47,378 bases of DNA, from assembly GCA_964525635.1 (NCBI GenBank), contig CAZGJX010000018.1, forward strand, positions 1-47,378, in the 5' to 3' direction. Shown here piece by piece: positions 33,725 through 43,602 of this stretch. Both the position numbers and the translations under genes were made by a program. The stretch's first letter is position 1. Each line of letters begins with the position of its first letter. The notes beneath the pieces were generated by a model. That model was not told where the DNA came from and did not search any database. It was given only the letters and a program-made list of their open reading frames with translations. This DNA is from an uncultured archaeon. Lineage in GTDB: Archaea > Asgardarchaeota > Lokiarchaeia > Sigyniarchaeales > SOKP01.

Positions 33725-34603
33725 TTAATTAAGTTCTATTAGCTTTACCTCTATTGAGAGCACTCCTTCGATTTTATAAATTTCTTCTATTATTATGTTC
33801 AATTTTTCCATATCTGGATCAATATAAACTTCATAGATACATCGATCAATTTCTTGACAAATTCCTGATGTAAACACTAAAGTAAATGCATCTTGATGTT
33901 GTGAAAATATATTTGATATCTTTTGAACAACTTTAACAGTCATTTGTTCTCCGAAAATTATTGCTAGTCTGATTATTTTATTAGTATTTACAGGAATCAT
34001 ATCTATTTTTATTGAATCTCCTCGGGTTCTAAACACCATAAAACAATTATCTTTATATTTAGAATTTTTATTAATTTTATTTATGAGTGAATCAGATAAT
34101 ATGATTTCTTTATCTTTCTTTAAATTTTTAAAAGATATTAATGATCCTTCTGTTTCAATTTTTTTTATTGAGACTATTTTATATAATTTATGAATTTCGT
34201 CTTTGAATATTCTATAATACTTTTGTATTTCTTTTTTATTAATCTCAGATTCATCATCAATATAAAAGGCTTTATATATCTCTTGAATATTTTTTATTTT
34301 TTCTATTGATTTTGATAATAAATCTTCATAATAAGAATAATCAGGTTCTTCTTCTGGAATTATAATTGTGATCATTGCCAGCTCTGAACGCCCTCTAGCC
34401 CATTCTGAATCTATTTTAAAGATCCAATTAGCTGTTTTTAATTCTGAAGTAAAATAATGAGAAAAGAATCCTTCATTAACACTATCCAAAAGTGATTTTA
34501 TTTGATTTATATCATTTTTATACAAATTTTCTATTAAGTCATCTGGAGAAGTTAAAAGTACTTGTGGTCCTACAGTTCTATTAAAATAAGTTAGCAATAT
34601 CAT
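33725..34603 (-). CDS. uDENN/longin-like N-terminal domain plus ACT-like C-terminal domain
   Basis: N-terminal LTYFNRTVGPQVLL and ARGRSE; C-terminal ferredoxin-like pattern ending IYKIEGVLSIEV. Confidence 0.5.
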   Translation of the reverse strand: MILLTYFNRTVGPQVLLTSPDDLIENLYKNDINQIKSLLDSVNEGFFSHYFTSELKTANWIFKIDSEWARGRSELAMITIIIPEEEPDYSYYEDLLSKSIEKIKNIQEIYKAFYIDDESEINKKEIQKYYRIFKDEIHKLYKIVSIKKIETEGSLISFKNLKKDKEIILSDSLINKINKNSKYKDNCFMVFRTRGDSIKIDMIPVNTNKIIRLAIIFGEQMTVKVVQKISNIFSQHQDAFTLVFTSGICQEIDRCIYEVYIDPDMEKLNIIIEEIYKIEGVLSIEVKLIELN

Positions 34604-35260: not shown

Positions 35261-35791
35261 AATAAACCGCCTTTAATCACAAATTTTCTTATAATAATAT
35301 TAATTGTAATATCATATATAAAGATTTATTTTTAGTAGATTAATATGTCGAACCTTTTAAAGGTAGGGTGTATAACCAATCTTAATATTTAAGTATTACC
35401 TATTAAAGTATTAATCCATAAAAAAACTTGTTTTTCCTCGTATTTTAATTATTTTTAAAATGAAAAAAATCAACTTTACTTTAATTGATTATAAAAAAAA
35501 AGCTATCTACTTTAAAATGATCTTTAAATTCCTTTTCATTAAATAAAAAGATTCTTTAAAAAATGTTCAATTCTTAATTATTAAATCTAATATTTATTCA
35601 AAATAAATGTTATTATTTCAAATATTAAAAAATAGTTATAAATCAGAAATTAAGAAAATTTCCGATCAATAAATTATAATAAATCAAAAACTTATCTACT
35701 TCTTGAAATTCAAATAAATTTTTATATCTCTCTCATTGATATTATAATAAGAAATTATTGGATTATAAAATTTTAAATTTAGTTTTTAATC

Positions 35792-37180
35792 ATGTCTATT
35801 CAAGAAAAATTTAAGGAAATCATTATAAATCATAAATTTGATGTTTTGAATCATATTTTTTTAACTCCGAAAGATGATTTATCACAATTTACAAAAGAGC
35901 AGGTAAATAATGCCCTATCAATTCTGGAAGGAAATATTTCAGGAGAAGTTCAATATTTTGGTGGTTCTATTGAAAAGAGTAAAGATCAATTTGAAGCTTT
36001 CATAGATACAATAAAGAAAGATATTGAAGCAGAATCTAATGATAATCAAAAAGAATTAAATGATATATTAAAAAAATATGTGAAGATTTTAAAAGAATAC
36101 ACAAGTAAATGTTGTTATGCAATAATTCCTGTTAAAGATATGCCTTGGACAGAAGTTTTATTCAGAACAGTTCCAAAGATAGTTTTTAAAGAAAAAACAA
36201 TTGAGTTAATTGATAGAATTATATCTTATTATGGTGAAATAAAATGTCTGATTTCAAAAACTATAATTCATGGAAGAATAAAAGGAGAACATTCTCTTTT
36301 CGCTCCAGTTATAGGGGATCTAGATTTAAATTATGAATTGGATGACGCGAATCAGAAAGCTAAGAAATCTTTTAATTATTCATATGTTAGTGCTATTATT
36401 AACTCATTAGAATCCACATCAATGAGAAATCATTTAACTCGTTACCATGAGGGATATCAAAGACGGGGTGATCCAATTTGCGATTTTCTCATGAAGAAAG
36501 ATGATTTAATCAACGTGTTTGATAAATTAATGTCTTGTATGGAGTCTGGTAGAATAAATAATAAAGTATCTATAATTGGAATTGCATTACCTCAATCCTC
36601 TGATAAAACAACTTTAGTTATAGTATTAGATGAGAGTGAGAATTCAGGAAAATATGAAAAATGTTTTGAAGCATTATTACGATTATCTGCTGCTTGCTGT
36701 GAAGCCCCTAAGCCACAAATCCAGCCTCAGCAAGCGGCCCCTTTAAGAACACCAGGGGGTCAAGAATTGAAAGTATGGACTGCAGAAGAATTAGCAGATC
36801 AAGCTAGTCAAAGAGGTTCCACTTCGCTACCTCCTGGAATGGATGTATGGACAGAGGAAGAATTGCAGAAAATGTCTGTAGAGAGACAATCAAGCTTACC
36901 TGAAGGAATGGAAACATGGACAGCAGAAGAATTACAAGAATTAGCAAAAAAGAGACAAGGTAATTTAGATATTCCCACATGGGAACCAGATAAAGATATG
37001 AGTGAATGTTCAAAATGTGGTTATGGTTTAAGAAAGGGATGGGATGAATGTCCGATTTGTGGAGCTATAGTTGGGGCTGAAAATGATGAAAGCCAAGAGG
37101 ATGAAAACCAAGAAGATGAAGACCAAGAAGACGATATAGAAAGTAATGAAGAATCAGTTGATTTAGAAAATGAAGATTAA
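35792..37180 (+). CDS. modular protein: globular N-domain, WTxEEL repeats, C4 zinc ribbon and acidic tail
   Basis: Three WTxEEL repeats, CSKC-x10-CPIC and an E/D-rich C-terminus. Confidence 0.75.
   Translation: MSIQEKFKEIIINHKFDVLNHIFLTPKDDLSQFTKEQVNNALSILEGNISGEVQYFGGSIEKSKDQFEAFIDTIKKDIEAESNDNQKELNDILKKYVKILKEYTSKCCYAIIPVKDMPWTEVLFRTVPKIVFKEKTIELIDRIISYYGEIKCLISKTIIHGRIKGEHSLFAPVIGDLDLNYELDDANQKAKKSFNYSYVSAIINSLESTSMRNHLTRYHEGYQRRGDPICDFLMKKDDLINVFDKLMSCMESGRINNKVSIIGIALPQSSDKTTLVIVLDESENSGKYEKCFEALLRLSAACCEAPKPQIQPQQAAPLRTPGGQELKVWTAEELADQASQRGSTSLPPGMDVWTEEELQKMSVERQSSLPEGMETWTAEELQELAKKRQGNLDIPTWEPDKDMSECSKCGYGLRKGWDECPICGAIVGAENDESQEDENQEDEDQEDDIESNEESVDLENED
37094..37138 (+). repeat. 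three 15-bp coding tandem repeats (QEDEN/QEDED/QEDDI)
   Basis: caagaggatgaaaac, caagaagatgaagac, caagaagacgatata. Confidence 0.7.
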
Positions 37181-37411
37181 TCAATTTCACATTTCAACTC
37201 CATTTTTACGACTTTAAAAATAGAAATTCTATAAAATTTTTTTTAATTTTAATCAAATAGATAGATTAAATAATTGAAAAAAATTAATTATTTTTAATTA
37301 ATTGTAAGATTGATTATATTTACTGTGATTTTTAAAATTCTTTCTATTCAAAAGTTTTTTTAAATATTTTTTATTATTAAATTTAAATAAATCAATTTTC
37401 TTGAATTCTAA

Positions 37412-38458
37412 TTGTTAAGTAATATATTTTTATTAAAGGGTAAAAACGTATCAGATTTGGATTTACTCAATATTTACAGTTATCCTTCTGATATAACTTG
37501 GAATGAAGATAAGCAATTCATTCAAAAGATTCTTTATGCTCATAATAATAATGGAAAAGATCAAATTTATCAAACTATATCTGAATTTAAAGCATTTCAA
37601 GAAAATAGTTTACAGAAGGAGCAAAAATACACAATAGAAGATCCTATTCCTCAGGTGATTAATGGACTTAATACCTATACTTTTTATATAAATAATAAAA
37701 TGAGTATAGGATTCATTTTTGACAAAGAAGATAATCCTTATGATTACAGAGATATATGTATGGAATTATTGCATGAAAATTTAATTATGGATTCTAACTT
37801 TTCTCTTGAAGAAGAACTTGAGATTGAGAATTTTTTGATTTCTCTATTTATAGGTATAAGAAGATATGGCGATGAAGTAATTGAAAGAAAACCTATTATT
37901 GAATATAGCTCTAATACCAATCTATTTATCAAGGTCTTTCTATTTGGAATAGATGAGGCTGGTAAAACTTCACTAATTCGTAGAATAAAAACAGGAAATT
38001 ATAATGATAATTATTTCATGCCTACAAGAAAATTTAATATAGAATATATTCAAGAAAATGAGGGACTTTTAGCTTTTTGGGATATGCCAGGACAACGAAC
38101 TTTTAGGAAAAAATGGTTATTAGGTTTACAGGATTCTAATCTTATTATTTATATGATAGATGTAGCTAATCAATTAAGATTTGAAGAAGCTAAAAAAGAA
38201 TTTTGGCGTATTATAAATAGATATGAATTAGCTGGTATTCCTTTACTCATATTAGGCAATAAGATTGATTTAATAAATCAAAATATTGATATTAAACAAA
38301 ATAAAGCACTAAAAAAAGAAATCTTTAGTTTTTTTGAATTTGGTAAAATAAATGATAGGAACTGGAAATTCCTTTTTACTTCAGTTAAAAGTAATTATCA
38401 AATTAATAGGGTATCCAAAAAAATATTTAAGTTAAAATCCTCAATAAATATAAATTAG
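37412..38458 (+). CDS. Arf-like small GTPase with N-terminal longin-like domain
   Basis: G1 GIDEAGKTS, G2 PT, G3 WDMPGQ, G4 NKID and G5 TSVK, with a ~170-aa N-terminal extension. Confidence 0.85.
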   Translation: MLSNIFLLKGKNVSDLDLLNIYSYPSDITWNEDKQFIQKILYAHNNNGKDQIYQTISEFKAFQENSLQKEQKYTIEDPIPQVINGLNTYTFYINNKMSIGFIFDKEDNPYDYRDICMELLHENLIMDSNFSLEEELEIENFLISLFIGIRRYGDEVIERKPIIEYSSNTNLFIKVFLFGIDEAGKTSLIRRIKTGNYNDNYFMPTRKFNIEYIQENEGLLAFWDMPGQRTFRKKWLLGLQDSNLIIYMIDVANQLRFEEAKKEFWRIINRYELAGIPLLILGNKIDLINQNIDIKQNKALKKEIFSFFEFGKINDRNWKFLFTSVKSNYQINRVSKKIFKLKSSININ

Positions 38459-38617
38459 AAATTATATAATTTTTTCATAAAAAAAACTAATTAAACATTT
38501 TAACTATGCTAAAATTACTTTAATCATTAAATTTAAATATTTAGATAATTAAATCTAATTCAAATAAGATAATTTAAGCATAATTTTCAATTAAACAATC
38601 TAAAAAGGGTTGACAAT

Positions 38618-39223
38618 ATGCATAAAAGATTTAAAAACGATCTGATAATTAATATTGATGAGAAAAAAGGACACTTATATCTTGGTGGAGCAGATAAACA
38701 AATCCGTTTATTTATGATAAGACCAATTGATATTATTGAGTTCTCTGAATTTGCAGGACAGAATGCAGCAGATATTCTCATATGGATTGGAAAAACATTA
38801 GGAAAAGAGATAATGCAGAAGTTTTTTTATGATTATTTCTTTTTGGAAACAATCCCAGTGAAGAAAGATATATTCAAAAGCGTACTTGAGGGATTAACTT
38901 TTATGGGATTTGGATATTTAGATGCTACTTTTAAAAAGGATCATATCTTAGTGAGTAATTATAATTCCATGGCAGATGCGGAAAGGGAAAACTATATGGC
39001 AAAGAATCTTTGTATTATAAATCAAGGACTTTTTCATGGAGTACTTGATGTCTTAGGTTTTGAAGCTGAGGGAGAAGAAATAGAATGCGTTTTATTAGGA
39101 AATAAGCGTTGTAAATTCCAGTTTAAATTACTTGAAGATAAAATACCAGACGACGCAATCGATGAGGAAAAGTCAGATCAAGAAGTAAAGACTATTATGG
39201 AATCTTTAGTTAAATCTTATTAA
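38618..39223 (+). CDS. V4R (Bet3/TRAPP-related fold) domain protein
   Basis: IGKTLG, MGFG, LCIINQGLFHG and EIECVLLGNKRCKF V4R signature. Confidence 0.8.
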   Translation: MHKRFKNDLIINIDEKKGHLYLGGADKQIRLFMIRPIDIIEFSEFAGQNAADILIWIGKTLGKEIMQKFFYDYFFLETIPVKKDIFKSVLEGLTFMGFGYLDATFKKDHILVSNYNSMADAERENYMAKNLCIINQGLFHGVLDVLGFEAEGEEIECVLLGNKRCKFQFKLLEDKIPDDAIDEEKSDQEVKTIMESLVKSY

Positions 39224-39448: not shown

Positions 39449-41797
39449 TTAAGTATGACAAAGTCTTTTTAGTAGGGTTGGATCAACTATTTCTTTTGGT
39501 TTCCAATCTTTTTCCTTGAGATATTTCACGATTTTATCCTTTAAATTTATTGGAATATCAGCTTCAACACGAATAAATTTGTCTAAGTCTTCTGGAATAT
39601 TTACACCTTTATATTTATATTCTAAATCAAGCCAATGGGATAATTTAATCATTCGACCTTTTGAATTATCAGCGGGTCTAAGAGCTAATTTTGCAACTAG
39701 ACAAATAGCTTCCTCAATTGTTTCTGCTGTTGTTAATAAATGTTCAGGACCAGGACCTACCAAATGTTCGGCTGTACCGTCTCGTGCATTATAGACCTTC
39801 CAAGTATCTTCCTTATCAGAACGCCCAAGATACATTCTACGATATTCCGCACCATGTGGTCCTATTACTGCTGGAATCCCAAGGCTATTAGCACTACTTG
39901 CAATACTTGCCGCTTTTTGACTCATTGCACCCCAAGCAACACCAACTGCTCCAACTCTGTTTAAAATGTAATCTGCTATTTCCTCAAAATTTCCCCTTAA
40001 TGGACGCCGAGCAAATATATTTGCTACTTTACAGGCCGCTCCAGTAATATGTGGATTACTAACACAAGATCCTACATTAACCAAACCTCCTCTGTCAAAA
40101 TCCCCTGGAAAACGATCATATAATGTTTCACCATCATCATTTTTAACAAGTCCTATATCCATAGCTGCACATCCTGAAACAACAACTATGTAATTTCTTT
40201 TACAGAATTCTTCTGCCATTTGATAAAGTTCTTGTATTTCATGAGCATAATTTGCACATCCAATTATAGCTACAATTCCTGGGATTTCTCCTAAAACTAT
40301 TGGAGCTCCAACATTACGGATTTCTGTATCTCGGATTGGCCCTCTTCCAACTCTTATATTAAATTTTTCATTTTTAATTTTTTCTCTTGCAGCATACATT
40401 ATAAGTGTAAGAGGAGAGACATTCTTCATGCAATCTGCTTCACACCGACCACAATCTAAACACTCATCATATATATTTGATAATAATGAAAAGTCACCAA
40501 CTTTGGCTGCTTTAATACTATCTACAAGGGGTAAATCATTAGGACAATTTCTCTGGCAATTAGTACATCCATTGCATCTTAAAGCCATTTCTATACAACC
40601 CTTTTCATCGGGAATAGCACTCTTTCCTTTTCTTAATGGTTTCACTCTAATTGCAGTCTCTACTGCTACTTTCGCTGCCTTAATAGGATCTAATATTAAA
40701 ACACCTTTAACTTTACCACTAACTAGGTCATCTACGATTTTATCTGCGAGATCATTTGTTCTATCGGGTAAACCATTCATATTTTTATCATTTGTAGCTA
40801 TAAATGGAGCATCAATCAATTTTGCTTGTTCAAAAGAACGTAAGTTAACACATTGTTCGTCAACCATTACAACATCAGCCAATCCCGAACGAATGAATGA
40901 TAATTGCCTTGAAAGTGAACCCACTATTTTTGCACCATCATAATATCTTGTTAAATCAAGAGCTGTACAACATATTGCCCCCACATCTATTTTTTCTTCT
41001 AATCCTGCTTCTCTTAAATAATCAACTAATTCAATACCGGGTGCTACATTATGACCAATCATTAAAATAGTAGCTTTATTTTCAAAATCCATTGTTCCTG
41101 TTCCTAATTCAACAATTGGAACATTCGGCTCTCCCACGGGGAATCCATATGCTGCTATTTGAACAGCATCCGAAATTTCCATTCCCACAGAATCACATAG
41201 ACCTGCTAAAAAACTTTTTGCTTCGTAATCTAAATAACTAGCTTCCTGACCTGTATGTCCCGCAGCGAGTAGGTGTGTTATATTATGTTGTACCCATTGC
41301 ATTGCTTCTTCTAAATCTTCAAGATTTTCTGGTTTCATTCCAACTATTAATCTTGTACATGGCATTTCAACCTCTATATTATTACCAAAATTTATTGGAA
41401 CATTCCCATATTTTTTTTTTAACCAGTGGAGTAAGTGATCTCCATGAGCTGAATGACAACTCGCCCCAATACAGCAAGCTATCTCTACTATTCTTGCTTG
41501 TTGAGTTTCCATGTTAATTCCACATGCTCCAGTTCTACCTTTTGAAAGATTACATTTTCCAAATGTACAAAGACAACACATATCACAAATTGGCATGTAA
41601 AAAGGCTTATAACGTTCCATTAATGTGAAAAACCAGTTTCTTAAGGTAGGAATTATCGGACGAGGTGTGGGTCCCATAGGTTCAAATTCTATCTCATCTG
41701 CATAACTTATTTTTCCAGTAGTGAATTCAAATCCTTTAATTGTTCCTAAAGGTCCCTTATAATCATCTATTTTTAATCTGGCACCTTTTTTACTCAT
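39449..41797 (-). CDS. cdhA: CO dehydrogenase/acetyl-CoA synthase complex alpha subunit
   Basis: CDMCCLCTFGKC, GHNV, ICCT, DEQC, two CxxCxxCxxxC ferredoxin motifs, GSCVSNPH and WGAMSQKA. Confidence 0.95.
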   Translation of the reverse strand: MSKKGARLKIDDYKGPLGTIKGFEFTTGKISYADEIEFEPMGPTPRPIIPTLRNWFFTLMERYKPFYMPICDMCCLCTFGKCNLSKGRTGACGINMETQQARIVEIACCIGASCHSAHGDHLLHWLKKKYGNVPINFGNNIEVEMPCTRLIVGMKPENLEDLEEAMQWVQHNITHLLAAGHTGQEASYLDYEAKSFLAGLCDSVGMEISDAVQIAAYGFPVGEPNVPIVELGTGTMDFENKATILMIGHNVAPGIELVDYLREAGLEEKIDVGAICCTALDLTRYYDGAKIVGSLSRQLSFIRSGLADVVMVDEQCVNLRSFEQAKLIDAPFIATNDKNMNGLPDRTNDLADKIVDDLVSGKVKGVLILDPIKAAKVAVETAIRVKPLRKGKSAIPDEKGCIEMALRCNGCTNCQRNCPNDLPLVDSIKAAKVGDFSLLSNIYDECLDCGRCEADCMKNVSPLTLIMYAAREKIKNEKFNIRVGRGPIRDTEIRNVGAPIVLGEIPGIVAIIGCANYAHEIQELYQMAEEFCKRNYIVVVSGCAAMDIGLVKNDDGETLYDRFPGDFDRGGLVNVGSCVSNPHITGAACKVANIFARRPLRGNFEEIADYILNRVGAVGVAWGAMSQKAASIASSANSLGIPAVIGPHGAEYRRMYLGRSDKEDTWKVYNARDGTAEHLVGPGPEHLLTTAETIEEAICLVAKLALRPADNSKGRMIKLSHWLDLEYKYKGVNIPEDLDKFIRVEADIPINLKDKIVKYLKEKDWKPKEIVDPTLLKRLCHT

Positions 41798-42396: not shown

Positions 42397-43602
42397 TTAT
42401 AAGAATAAATTAATTAATGGTAAGAGTTGTTTTTTAAAATATTCAATATATTTATCAATTAGAGCAGGATTATCTGTGAGTACCCATAAATAAACTGGAA
42501 TTTGTAAATCAGAATATTCAAATAATTTTTCTCCTTGGATTGTAAATCCATTTAAAGGGAATTCAAGCTTTATTGATTTTTCTCTAATTAATCCTATTGA
42601 ATTATGAAAATTACTAAGAGTTTGTAATAATAATGCTGTATTGTTAATTAACATCTCATCTGTATTTGTTTGATGATAAGTTCCAAAAATTAAACCATCC
42701 ATAGAAATTAAACTTGTGGCTTTACTATTAATAATTCGTGCAAATTCCTCTAGAATGTTCTCGATTATTTCATATGTATCAGAAACTTTCTTTAAGGCGA
42801 CACTAAACATCTGCATAATAGTTTCTTTCTGAAAAATCGTAGTATCATAATAATCAATGTTAAAATCTTTAAAGTTATCTAAGACGGGATTGAAAGAATC
42901 TTTAATTGCTCTTACATTCTGTTGCCATTCGAGAGTCTTCCTGAAATCTTGATCACTTTTATGAAGTACAATAAGAATAGGTGATTTTTCATCGAGGTTG
43001 GTTAATGATTCTAATACTTGTTGGAAATATTCAGCAGATTCTTTAAATCTTTCAGCATCTTGGACATCAATTACATATAAAATCAAATCAACTTCCGTGA
43101 AAAAGATTTCAGGTTTATTAAAATAATATTTTTCTCTATATTGAACCTGTCCACCTAAATCCCAAGATACAATAGGATAACCAAAAAATTCTAACTTTTC
43201 TCTTTTAACACCTTTAGTTGGTAATAATGATTTAATTATTGAGAATTTATCTTGGAGTACAGCCAGAATGGATGATTTTCCTCCATTATCTAGTCCAATT
43301 AATAATAATTTTTTCTGTTCCTTTAGTTGCTCTTTTATAGTTTTCTCTAATAATTTTGCAATTCTAATCCATTTTATTATAATATTAGGTTCAATTTCCT
43401 TAATTTGAGGGGGATTATCTTCATTTAAATTTGCCATATCTAAAATTGATTCAATATTATACTTTGATAACACTTCTGAAGAGATTTGATCAATTCCTAT
43501 CAACGTATCTGGTTTAAAACGTAATATCTCCTCCAAATCGTTGAAAATAACAGTTCTTTTAAAGAAATCCTTAATTTTTAATAAATTATCTTCCCAAGAC
43601 AT
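42397..43602 (-). CDS. Rag/Arf-like GTPase with N-terminal HhH-like and C-terminal roadblock-like domains
   Basis: G1 GLDNGGKSS, G3 WDLGGQ, G4 HKSD and G5 TTIF; C-terminal LISMDGLIFG; N-terminal LIGIDQISSEVLSKYNIESILDM. Confidence 0.8.
   Translation of the reverse strand: MSWEDNLLKIKDFFKRTVIFNDLEEILRFKPDTLIGIDQISSEVLSKYNIESILDMANLNEDNPPQIKEIEPNIIIKWIRIAKLLEKTIKEQLKEQKKLLLIGLDNGGKSSILAVLQDKFSIIKSLLPTKGVKREKLEFFGYPIVSWDLGGQVQYREKYYFNKPEIFFTEVDLILYVIDVQDAERFKESAEYFQQVLESLTNLDEKSPILIVLHKSDQDFRKTLEWQQNVRAIKDSFNPVLDNFKDFNIDYYDTTIFQKETIMQMFSVALKKVSDTYEIIENILEEFARIINSKATSLISMDGLIFGTYHQTNTDEMLINNTALLLQTLSNFHNSIGLIREKSIKLEFPLNGFTIQGEKLFEYSDLQIPVYLWVLTDNPALIDKYIEYFKKQLLPLINLFL

Follow-up and report, generated by a model that had tools for sequence, protein, structure and literature searches.

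Do a longin-fused small GTPase and the V4R protein encoded next to it in a Lokiarchaeial genome work together, and if so, do the two represent a forerunner of the eukaryotic TRAPP complex, which acts on Rabs (Rab1/Ypt1, Rab11) and is built from the same two classes of fold? The question is raised by contig CAZGJX010000018.1 (assembly GCA_964525635.1) of an uncultured archaeon, analysed here as one stretch of 47,378 nucleotides (nt; hereafter the window), in which a GTPase gene is followed on the same strand by a V4R gene and preceded by a gene for a 462-residue protein. An earlier note on this DNA had read the GTPase and V4R genes as a possible minimal proto-TRAPP module, i.e. as a GTPase together with both folds that form its guanine nucleotide exchange factor (GEF). 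Asgard archaea encode dozens of small GTPases, almost none of which has a known partner, and the layout of a genome makes such partners difficult to recognise (Tran et al. 2024, PMC10933270). If they are true partners, the V4R protein and the 462-residue protein would be concrete candidates to be tested for the control of an archaeal Arf-type GTPase, and the partnership would bear on whether the pairing of longin and V4R/Bet3 folds in TRAPP predates the eukaryotes. As shown below, the GTPase and the V4R protein of this Lokiarchaeia-type Asgard archaeon are encoded by two real genes, each probably with a promoter of its own. Our preference, which is a tentative one, is for a V4R protein that acts as a ligand-sensing regulator or effector of small GTPases, the one in the window included, outside any TRAPP-like context.

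The fusion of a longin domain and an Arf-like G domain

Two plus-strand open reading frames (ORFs) are found exactly where the earlier note had placed them (Table 1), that of the GTPase starting with TTG and that of the V4R protein with ATG, in a window that is AT-rich (21-33% GC). Neither is a chance frame, because both encoded proteins have many conserved homologs. The TTG lies immediately 3' of an in-frame TAA and is taken as the true start of the GTPase, because the N-terminus that it yields, MLSNIFLLKGKN, is common to more than 90 homologs.

The C-terminal part of the protein (residues 172-334) is assigned to Arf by Pfam (E 3.1e-29), with Ras (E 1.7e-13), Roc, SRPRB and Gtr1/RagA (Gtr1_RagA, E 2.2e-7) as weaker matches. 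The closest PDB sequences are those of Arl3 and Arl8 (E 7e-21), followed more weakly by Arf proteins, and the top 60 PDB sequence matches are almost throughout of the Arf/Arl/Sar type. Across 61 homologs the motifs of a GTPase are kept, i.e. G1 (GxDxxGK[TS]S), the P-T/S of switch I, G3 (WDxPGQ, its Gln being present in 54 of the 61), G4 (NKxD) and G5 (SVK), which bears out the claim of an intact G1-G5 set; judged from these motifs, the G domain looks like a working GTP switch. The gene has a single copy in its genome (100% complete, 4.45 Mb), which contains at least 80 loci that match the Arf model.

Eukaryotic Arf proteins carry an N-terminal, membrane-binding, amphipathic and often myristoylated helix that is coupled to the interswitch toggle. 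At the position of the helix of Arf proper, the protein of the window has a 170-residue longin domain instead, and the G domain begins at about residue 172. Residues 1-172 were modelled with AlphaFold2 (AF2) from a 91-sequence alignment with a predicted local distance difference test (pLDDT) score of 74 and a predicted TM-score (pTM) of 0.70. The model has strands at 2-9, 20-24, 79-83, 86-93 and 97-103, helices at 34-47, 109-126 and 135-157, and a low-confidence insert at 49-69, so that the elements follow the beta-beta-alpha-beta-beta-beta-alpha-alpha order of longin domains and lie where the earlier note had put them. Its top structural match in an exhaustive alignment (VIA-align) is the Lokiarchaeal longin 8yqg_B (Z 10.1, root-mean-square deviation 3.4, 124 residues aligned), and the top 30 are, with few exceptions, longin domains; Foldseek gave weak matches (E ~3e-3) that were longin-type throughout. 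The structure search that had been proposed for residues 1-165 thus returned the fold expected, and the longin reading is confirmed by the order of the elements in combination with the structural matches.

The type of longin is a separate matter. Besides 8yqg_B, the matches at Z 8-10 comprise the longins of NPRL2, Mon1, HPS, SEA/Npr, Fuzzy/Inturned, AP2 sigma, Lst4, Ccz1 and VAMP7, whereas those of TRAPP reach Z 8.2 (synbindin) and 7.2-7.3 (Bet5, sedlin, TRAPPC2), i.e. 7.2-8.2 as against 8.6-10.1 for other longins, where Z gaps under ~1 were treated as ties. These scores do not confirm a specifically TRAPP-type longin, the longins of Mon1, NPRL2, AP-sigma and Lst4 matching equally well or better. 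Further structural matches are the SRX domain 2go5 (Z 8.2) and the Lokiarchaeal Rag roadblock structures 8yl2 (Z 6.6) and 9m28 (Z 6.1). At the sequence level residues 1-172 have no Pfam match, and a profile search against the PDB gave a single chance-level match (E 0.47). Run against 1.84 billion proteins, a profile of 91 homologs recovered only 32 representatives at E <= 1e-3, nearly always with the same architecture of ~340 amino acids (aa) or as fragments of it, so that in terms of sequence this longin is almost an orphan.

A V4R protein of the PoxR/DmpR kind

The second protein consists of 201 aa without a further domain (184-202 aa in its homologs). In Pfam it matches V4R at the borderline, with E 6.8e-7 and 29.7 bits where the cut-off is 31, and with 32 bits on the open frame; at E <= 0.1 the only other Pfam matches are DUF3784 and MetOD1, and TRAPP (PF04051) is not among them. 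A search of the whole genome with PF04051 was silent, and its controls were silent as well. With the profile of the protein, PDB sequences were matched at chance level only (TRAPPC3 at E 0.44). The AF2 model (62 homologs, pLDDT 83) clearly falls within the V4R/Bet3/H-NOX fold group, so that the claim of a V4R fold encoded co-directionally with the GTPase holds. Its top matches in VIA-align are DmpR (6iy8_A, Z 14.0) and PoxR (5fru_A, Z 13.4), aligned over 162 residues of model positions 1-175, the N-terminal strands included, at 14-17% identity; BcsD, Bet3 (3cue_B, 11.9), an archaeal V4R protein (2oso, 11.8), Thor TRAPPC3 (7yh2_A, 11.7) and H-NOX rank lower. Foldseek gives the same order, with PoxR/MopR/DmpR first (E 1e-6).

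Among the 62 homologs C132, E154 and C157 are invariant and C165 is kept in at least 90%. The resulting spacing, C-x21-E-x2-C-x7-C (offsets 22/3/8), compares with offsets of 23/3/8 for C149/E172/C175/C183 of XylR, the zinc ligands described for that protein and shown in PoxR, MopR and DmpR (bioRxiv 10.1101/2021.01.17.427014), and we accordingly predict a zinc site of the PoxR/DmpR kind. Because of the ranking of the folds and this site, the protein is classified as a PoxR-type, sensor-like member of the V4R/Bet3 superfamily and not as a Bet3/TRAPPC3-type one. The same homologs share a C-terminal tail in which D182 and L197 are invariant and E188, F193 and L194 are kept in at least 90%, and which forms a helix at 187-200 in the model; this acidic tail may be a protein-binding motif.

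Gene order and the case for a partnership

Scanning species-representative genomes for the N-domain (by its alignment) yielded 111 relatives, of which 80 loci were kept; three of these end before a V4R gene could appear and three carry other genes in its place. In the remaining 74 of the 77 loci with room, an ortholog of the V4R protein (40-85% identity) is encoded directly 3' of the GTPase gene, on the same strand and 90-223 nt past the point where the GTPase match stops. The possibility that the pair is not syntenic elsewhere, named beforehand as a ground for giving the idea up, thus fails at face value. The gene for the 462-aa protein is the most faithful neighbour of the GTPase gene, which it directly precedes in the same orientation in 78 of 79 loci. 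Its product has an N-terminal region of ~310 aa without assignment, Trp-acidic (WTxEEL) repeats, a zinc ribbon (residues 406-425, the only Pfam match) and an acidic tail; all its features in the ESM Atlas scored below 0.8 and gave no lead.

The three genes are part of a block of ~15 kb in which further genes are kept in the same order: among the 80 loci the 462-aa gene is found in 79, an RHH gene in 69, an HIT-like gene in 62 and cdhA in 58, in addition to a Rag-like GTPase gene. Counted only where a locus has room, the successive adjacencies are 48/48, 59/62, RHH to 462-aa 29/69, 462-aa to GTPase 78/79, GTPase to V4R 71/74, V4R to cdhA 45/61, and then 42/49 and 33/33. The trio of 462-aa, GTPase and V4R genes is therefore bounded on either side by the junctions at which the block is most prone to rearrangement (29/69 on the upstream and 45/61 on the downstream side), the downstream one being regarded as such because extra genes are inserted in 16 of the 61 loci.

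With respect to transcription, an oligo-T run is present just 3' of the GTPase stop, and across 73 loci the spacer between the GTPase and V4R genes measures 77-199 nt (median 128). The spacing of the AT-rich element ATTAAATTTAAATA before the TTG of the GTPase would fit a TATA box of a leaderless transcript, and an identical 14-mer precedes the V4R gene in the window. In so AT-rich a stretch, matches to this 14-mer with at most one mismatch number 4 versus 2.1 expected in shuffles, i.e. there is no enrichment, and the shared 14-mer therefore carries low weight. A TTTAAATTTCTATTATAT-like element occurs ~45-60 nt before the V4R start in many of 19 sampled upstream regions, together with a G frequency of 58-79% at positions -10 to -8.

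How much of this gene order can be credited to function is best judged against the alternative that the two genes are neighbours by descent only, that is, unrelated members of large paralog families that stand side by side in a Lokiarchaeia family which has kept the order of ~15 kb of genes, an explanation that we regard as quite possible, if on balance somewhat doubtful. A number of controls speak for it and weigh against a dedicated partnership in the window. Nearly every adjacency of the block is kept at 93-100%, and unrelated neighbours (48/48, 59/62, 33/33, 23/23) are kept equally well, so that, by the counts within the block, the pair is conserved no better than genes that have nothing to do with each other and its adjacency does not go beyond general synteny. 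All loci with the pair fall within one GTDB family, and in the three genomes of that same family with other genes in place of V4R, its ortholog is on another contig or at least 1.5 kb away while the GTPase gene has kept its position. The TTTAAATTTCTATTATAT-like element and the G-rich triplet imply that the V4R gene probably has a promoter of its own. In a comparison of distance matrices over 36 loci, the GTPase-V4R correlation (r = 0.50) shows no excess (unrelated neighbours score 0.72, HIT-like, and 0.71, RHH, against the same GTPase) and falls to a partial r of -0.02 when three background genes are controlled for, although a mirror-tree style test of this sort is a weak one with 36 related loci. 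Chance adjacency is moreover eased by the sheer number of GTPase genes, this genome having at least 80 small-GTPase loci beside its four V4R ORFs. The earlier claim that the adjacency is kept elsewhere is hence right for 74 of 77 loci, but it holds within a single family in which unrelated adjacencies are kept just as well.

The taxonomic range of the GTPase points the same way. When 400 genomes of the phylum were searched with the N-domain profile, matches came from 124 of the 134 members of the GTDB family concerned and, within two sister families of the same order, from 1 of 1 and 11 of 14, with none among ~250 others; the titles of the corresponding NCBI records vary widely, and in GTDB all these genomes group in one order. 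The sister-family ortholog (30-40% identity, with the same MLxNIFL start) occurs once per genome, closed genomes included, and has no V4R, 462-aa or cdhA gene within 8 kb. The V4R profile finds nothing in two closed sister-family genomes (6.0 and 4.3 Mb), a weak match (6e-6) in a third and one match on another contig in a fourth. From the closed genomes it follows that the GTPase exists where the profile finds no such V4R protein. According to Tran et al., the GTPase genes of Ca. Prometheoarchaeum syntrophicum MK-D1 do not in general share operons with those for roadblock, longin or TRAPPC3 proteins (PMC10933270). In our view these controls weaken the case for the pair in the window, the adjacency of which is explained as well by synteny at the level of the family.

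Two further lines of evidence were neutral or discarded. Prediction of a complex between the full-length GTPase and the V4R protein gave an ipSAE of 0.00 in both of two runs made without controls, which has no bearing on whether the two bind. Five genomes of the family lack both the GTPase and the 462-aa gene, and in four of them the V4R gene is missing as well. This co-loss was rejected as evidence of coupling and is uninformative, since the absences coincide with assembly breaks: in genome G181 the contig stops 1.3 kb beyond the RHH gene, and in G190 a scaffold gap of 100 N follows that gene directly; the flanking HIT-like gene is likewise missing in G161, G172 and G184. The junction between the RHH and 462-aa genes (window 35261-35791) is variable in itself, the two genes lying within 1.5 kb of each other in 29 of 69 loci only, and its coincidence with the contig end (G181:C2) and the scaffold gap (G190:C1, ~641.8 kb; L175:5775-5874) suggests a repeat or a variable insert.

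What descent alone does not readily account for is that V4R genes adjoin genes of small GTPases repeatedly and independently. In this genome, two of the four V4R ORFs have a small GTPase gene at a distance of less than 1 kb, an outcome expected in ~1-2% of random placements (a rough estimate, given about one GTPase locus per 56 kb). The second case, on contig C27 (~33.5-36.2 kb; L134:3800-6150; L137), is a run of a Ras/Rab-like GTPase, a thioredoxin-like 111-aa protein and a 159-aa V4R protein that is 25% identical to the V4R protein of the window, with a further Rab-like GTPase nearby in a variable position. Of 36 loci with room, 35 have the three genes of such a run in one direction; they span two GTDB families, including three closed sister-family genomes in which two genes that flank the run in the genome of the window were not found, and the conservation of this cluster across families counts against inherited gene order alone. 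A third instance is found in sister-family genome G135 (L132, C6:88575-92093, minus strand), where a 166-aa ORF, a divergent small GTPase of 198 aa, a 75-aa ORF, a V4R1-like protein of 173 aa and a second V4R protein of 165 aa follow each other on the same strand, so that the V4R1-like gene is downstream of the GTPase gene. To these may be added the Heimdall longin-TRAPPC3 fusion protein reported by Tran et al. 2024 (PMC10933270), a hint of the Rosetta-stone kind at joint action of the longin and V4R folds, which likewise counts against mere descent. Together, the V4R genes near GTPase genes and the fusion raise the prior for a partnership between V4R proteins and small GTPases in this lineage, and they say nothing on exchange-factor activity. 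The cluster of Rab-like GTPase, thioredoxin-like and V4R genes, being conserved across families, is the more persuasive lead and makes a stronger case for a Rab-V4R partnership than does the pair in the window.

Two observations were made alongside in this genome. The upstream Rab-like GTPase gene of the C27 cluster contains a 30-nt in-frame insertion with a TAA inside G3 (L137:735-764; WDI, LLKNISLKC*, AGQ), which is not present in a congeneric genome (L138) and could reflect decay into a pseudogene, a fault in the assembly or a small intervening sequence. On contig C49 (L135:3789-5932) a 246-aa protein has both XylR_N and V4R above the Pfam cut-offs. Its gene precedes, on the same strand, that of a 447-aa protein without a Pfam match, which by eye has a putative roadblock/longin-like N-terminus and a Cys-rich knuckle at its C-terminus; it bears no resemblance to the 462-aa protein encoded in the window.

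A partnership, if there is one, need not be of the TRAPP kind. According to the original proposal the fused longin and the V4R protein would jointly build a surface like that of TRAPP, by which the attached G domain has its nucleotide pocket opened, the V4R protein being the exchange factor, and the conserved acidic tail might then take the role of the C-terminus of Bet3, which reportedly reaches into the nucleotide pocket of Ypt1. Both folds of the TRAPP core are indeed present, and the structural matches include TRAPP longins (Z 7.2-8.2) and Bet3-family proteins (Z 11-12); in 74 of 77 loci the two genes stand side by side on the same strand, the tail is conserved, and V4R is accepted as the likely ancestor of Bet3 (PMC2253512). 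Even so, we consider the proposal improbable. The V4R protein is nearer to PoxR/DmpR than to Bet3, zinc site included, and gave no match to PF04051 at E <= 0.1; the G domain is Arf-like and not Rab-like; longins from outside TRAPP match the N-domain as well as or better than those of TRAPP; and the comparison of distance matrices gave no signal of co-evolution. Moreover, the V4R protein cannot be an obligatory exchange factor, because orthologs of the GTPase persist in closed genomes where its profile finds nothing. Of the idea of a GTPase accompanied by both GEF-forming folds, the longin fold, the intact G domain and the V4R fold stand, but the V4R protein is closer to PoxR/DmpR than to Bet3 and the G domain is Arf-like; the module as such keeps its adjacency, which synteny within one family explains as well, and has a single fused longin instead of a free longin pair.

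The reading that we prefer, i.e. a ligand-sensing V4R protein that regulates, or responds to, small GTPases, can be worked out as follows. The longin-Arf-like GTPase should cycle between GTP and GDP like any Arf-type switch, with the longin domain apparently placed where eukaryotic Arfs carry their membrane-binding helix. By analogy with Rag, MglA/MglB and SR-beta/SRX, the fused longin would most likely serve as a built-in platform for dimerisation and for the docking of regulators. The V4R fold would be held by its Cys-Glu-Cys-Cys zinc site and would most likely bind a small hydrophobic ligand. The two would thus make up a loosely coupled pair of sensor and switch, in which the 462-aa protein may take part, and not a TRAPP-type exchange factor. 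The folds, motifs, zinc-site residues, gene order and taxonomic range are as observed, whereas dimerisation, the binding of a ligand, contact between GTPase and V4R protein and any effect on nucleotide exchange are what we infer. A stronger version, in which the V4R protein is a ligand-gated exchange factor or direct regulator that docks on the fused longin with its acidic tail at the nucleotide pocket, is in our estimation a long shot. If true, the longin and Bet3 catalytic core of TRAPP would have a functional analogue made up of two genes, possibly one that is related to it, and coupled to a small-molecule signal.

Features of the locus and known systems

Table 1. Positions in the window of the GTPase and V4R genes, their domains and the associated elements
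Feature	Position	Strand	Details
Longin-Arf-like GTPase gene	37412..38458	+	348 aa, TTG start
Longin domain, residues 1-172 (fold core 1-157, low-confidence insert 49-69)	37412..37927	+	AF2 model
Arf-like G domain, residues 172-334	37925..38413	+	Pfam Arf E 3.1e-29
G motifs of the GTPase (residues)			G1 179-187, switch I P204-T205, G3 W223-Q228, G4 N283-D286, G5 S324-K326
Intergenic spacer, 159 nt	38459..38617	+	Sequence read
Stand-alone V4R protein gene, PoxR/XylR-A-domain type	38618..39223	+	201 aa; Pfam V4R, AF2 model
Predicted zinc site, codons C132/E154/C157/C165	39011..39112	+	Conservation in 62 homologs
Acidic C-terminal tail of V4R protein with amphipathic helix	39143..39220	+	Family consensus ...D..SEE.VS.FLSTL
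Upstream candidate partner gene, 462-aa protein	35792..37180	+	Conserved directly upstream of GTPase gene
Promoter-like AT-rich element ATTAAATTTAAATA	37376..37389	+	End 22 nt before GTPase TTG
Promoter-like element in spacer, 5' of V4R gene	38526-38539	+	Exact second copy of the 37376..37389 element
GGG Shine-Dalgarno-like triplet 5' of V4R gene	38607-38609	+	Sequence read

Of the remaining genes of the syntenic block, cdhA (window 39449-41797, minus strand) is encoded opposite to the trio here and in the closest relatives, and on the same strand in most other genomes of the family. Further along lies a Gtr1/RagA-like GTPase gene with N- and C-terminal extensions (window 42397-43602, minus strand; Pfam Gtr1_RagA, E 1e-25). 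A 292-aa protein without a Pfam match (window 33725-34603, minus strand) belongs to the same block, and its gene is present in 11 of the 80 loci only. One full trio (L062, DATKTW010000126.1) is found on a contig that is filed under a metagenome-assembled genome of a 'Candidatus Nanopelagicaceae bacterium', probably as the result of a binning or labelling error.

A literature search retrieved no paper that describes the trio. Its components have well-described relatives. The fusion of longin and GTPase is already published for Asgard archaea: Tran, Akil, Senju & Robinson 2024 (Commun Biol 7:273, PMC10933270) count 74 small GTPases in MK-D1, of which 26 have a roadblock or longin domain attached, and describe Arf/Rag-like GTPases fused to longin in this organism as well as both TRAPPC3-like and PoxR-like V4R proteins. 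The GTPase of the window joins this known class, for it combines an N-terminal longin with an Arf/Rag-like G domain in a Lokiarchaeial genome; it differs in being a family-specific ortholog, the conserved neighbours of which do not appear in that study. A broader class of likenesses is formed by Rag/Gtr with roadblock proteins, MglA-MglB and SR-beta with the SRX domain of SR-alpha, in all of which a small GTPase is combined with a platform of longin or roadblock fold, whereas the platform in the window is N-terminal and of longin topology.

For the V4R protein the nearest relatives are the A domains of PoxR, MopR, DmpR and XylR (5fru, 5kbe, 6iy8; XylR_N + V4R), with which it shares the fold of the whole domain and the predicted Cys-Glu-Cys-Cys zinc site, at an identity of only 14-17%. 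Unlike these, it stands alone, i.e. it has neither an AAA+ sigma-54 activator nor an HTH or other DNA-binding output, and it adds the conserved acidic tail. The TRAPP core (Bet3/Trs31/Trs33 with the longins Bet5/Trs23/Trs20; 3cue, 7b6d) is similar in that the same two classes of fold are found beside a small GTPase; chains of the Bet3 family, the Thorarchaeota TRAPPC3 (7yh2, 7yh3) included, match the V4R model at Z 11-12, and Podar et al. 2008 (PMC2253512) proposed that Bet3 descends from V4R. TRAPP is nevertheless a GEF for Rab1/Ypt1 with free longin subunits, whereas the locus in the window combines one longin in cis with an Arf-like GTPase and a sensor-like V4R protein.

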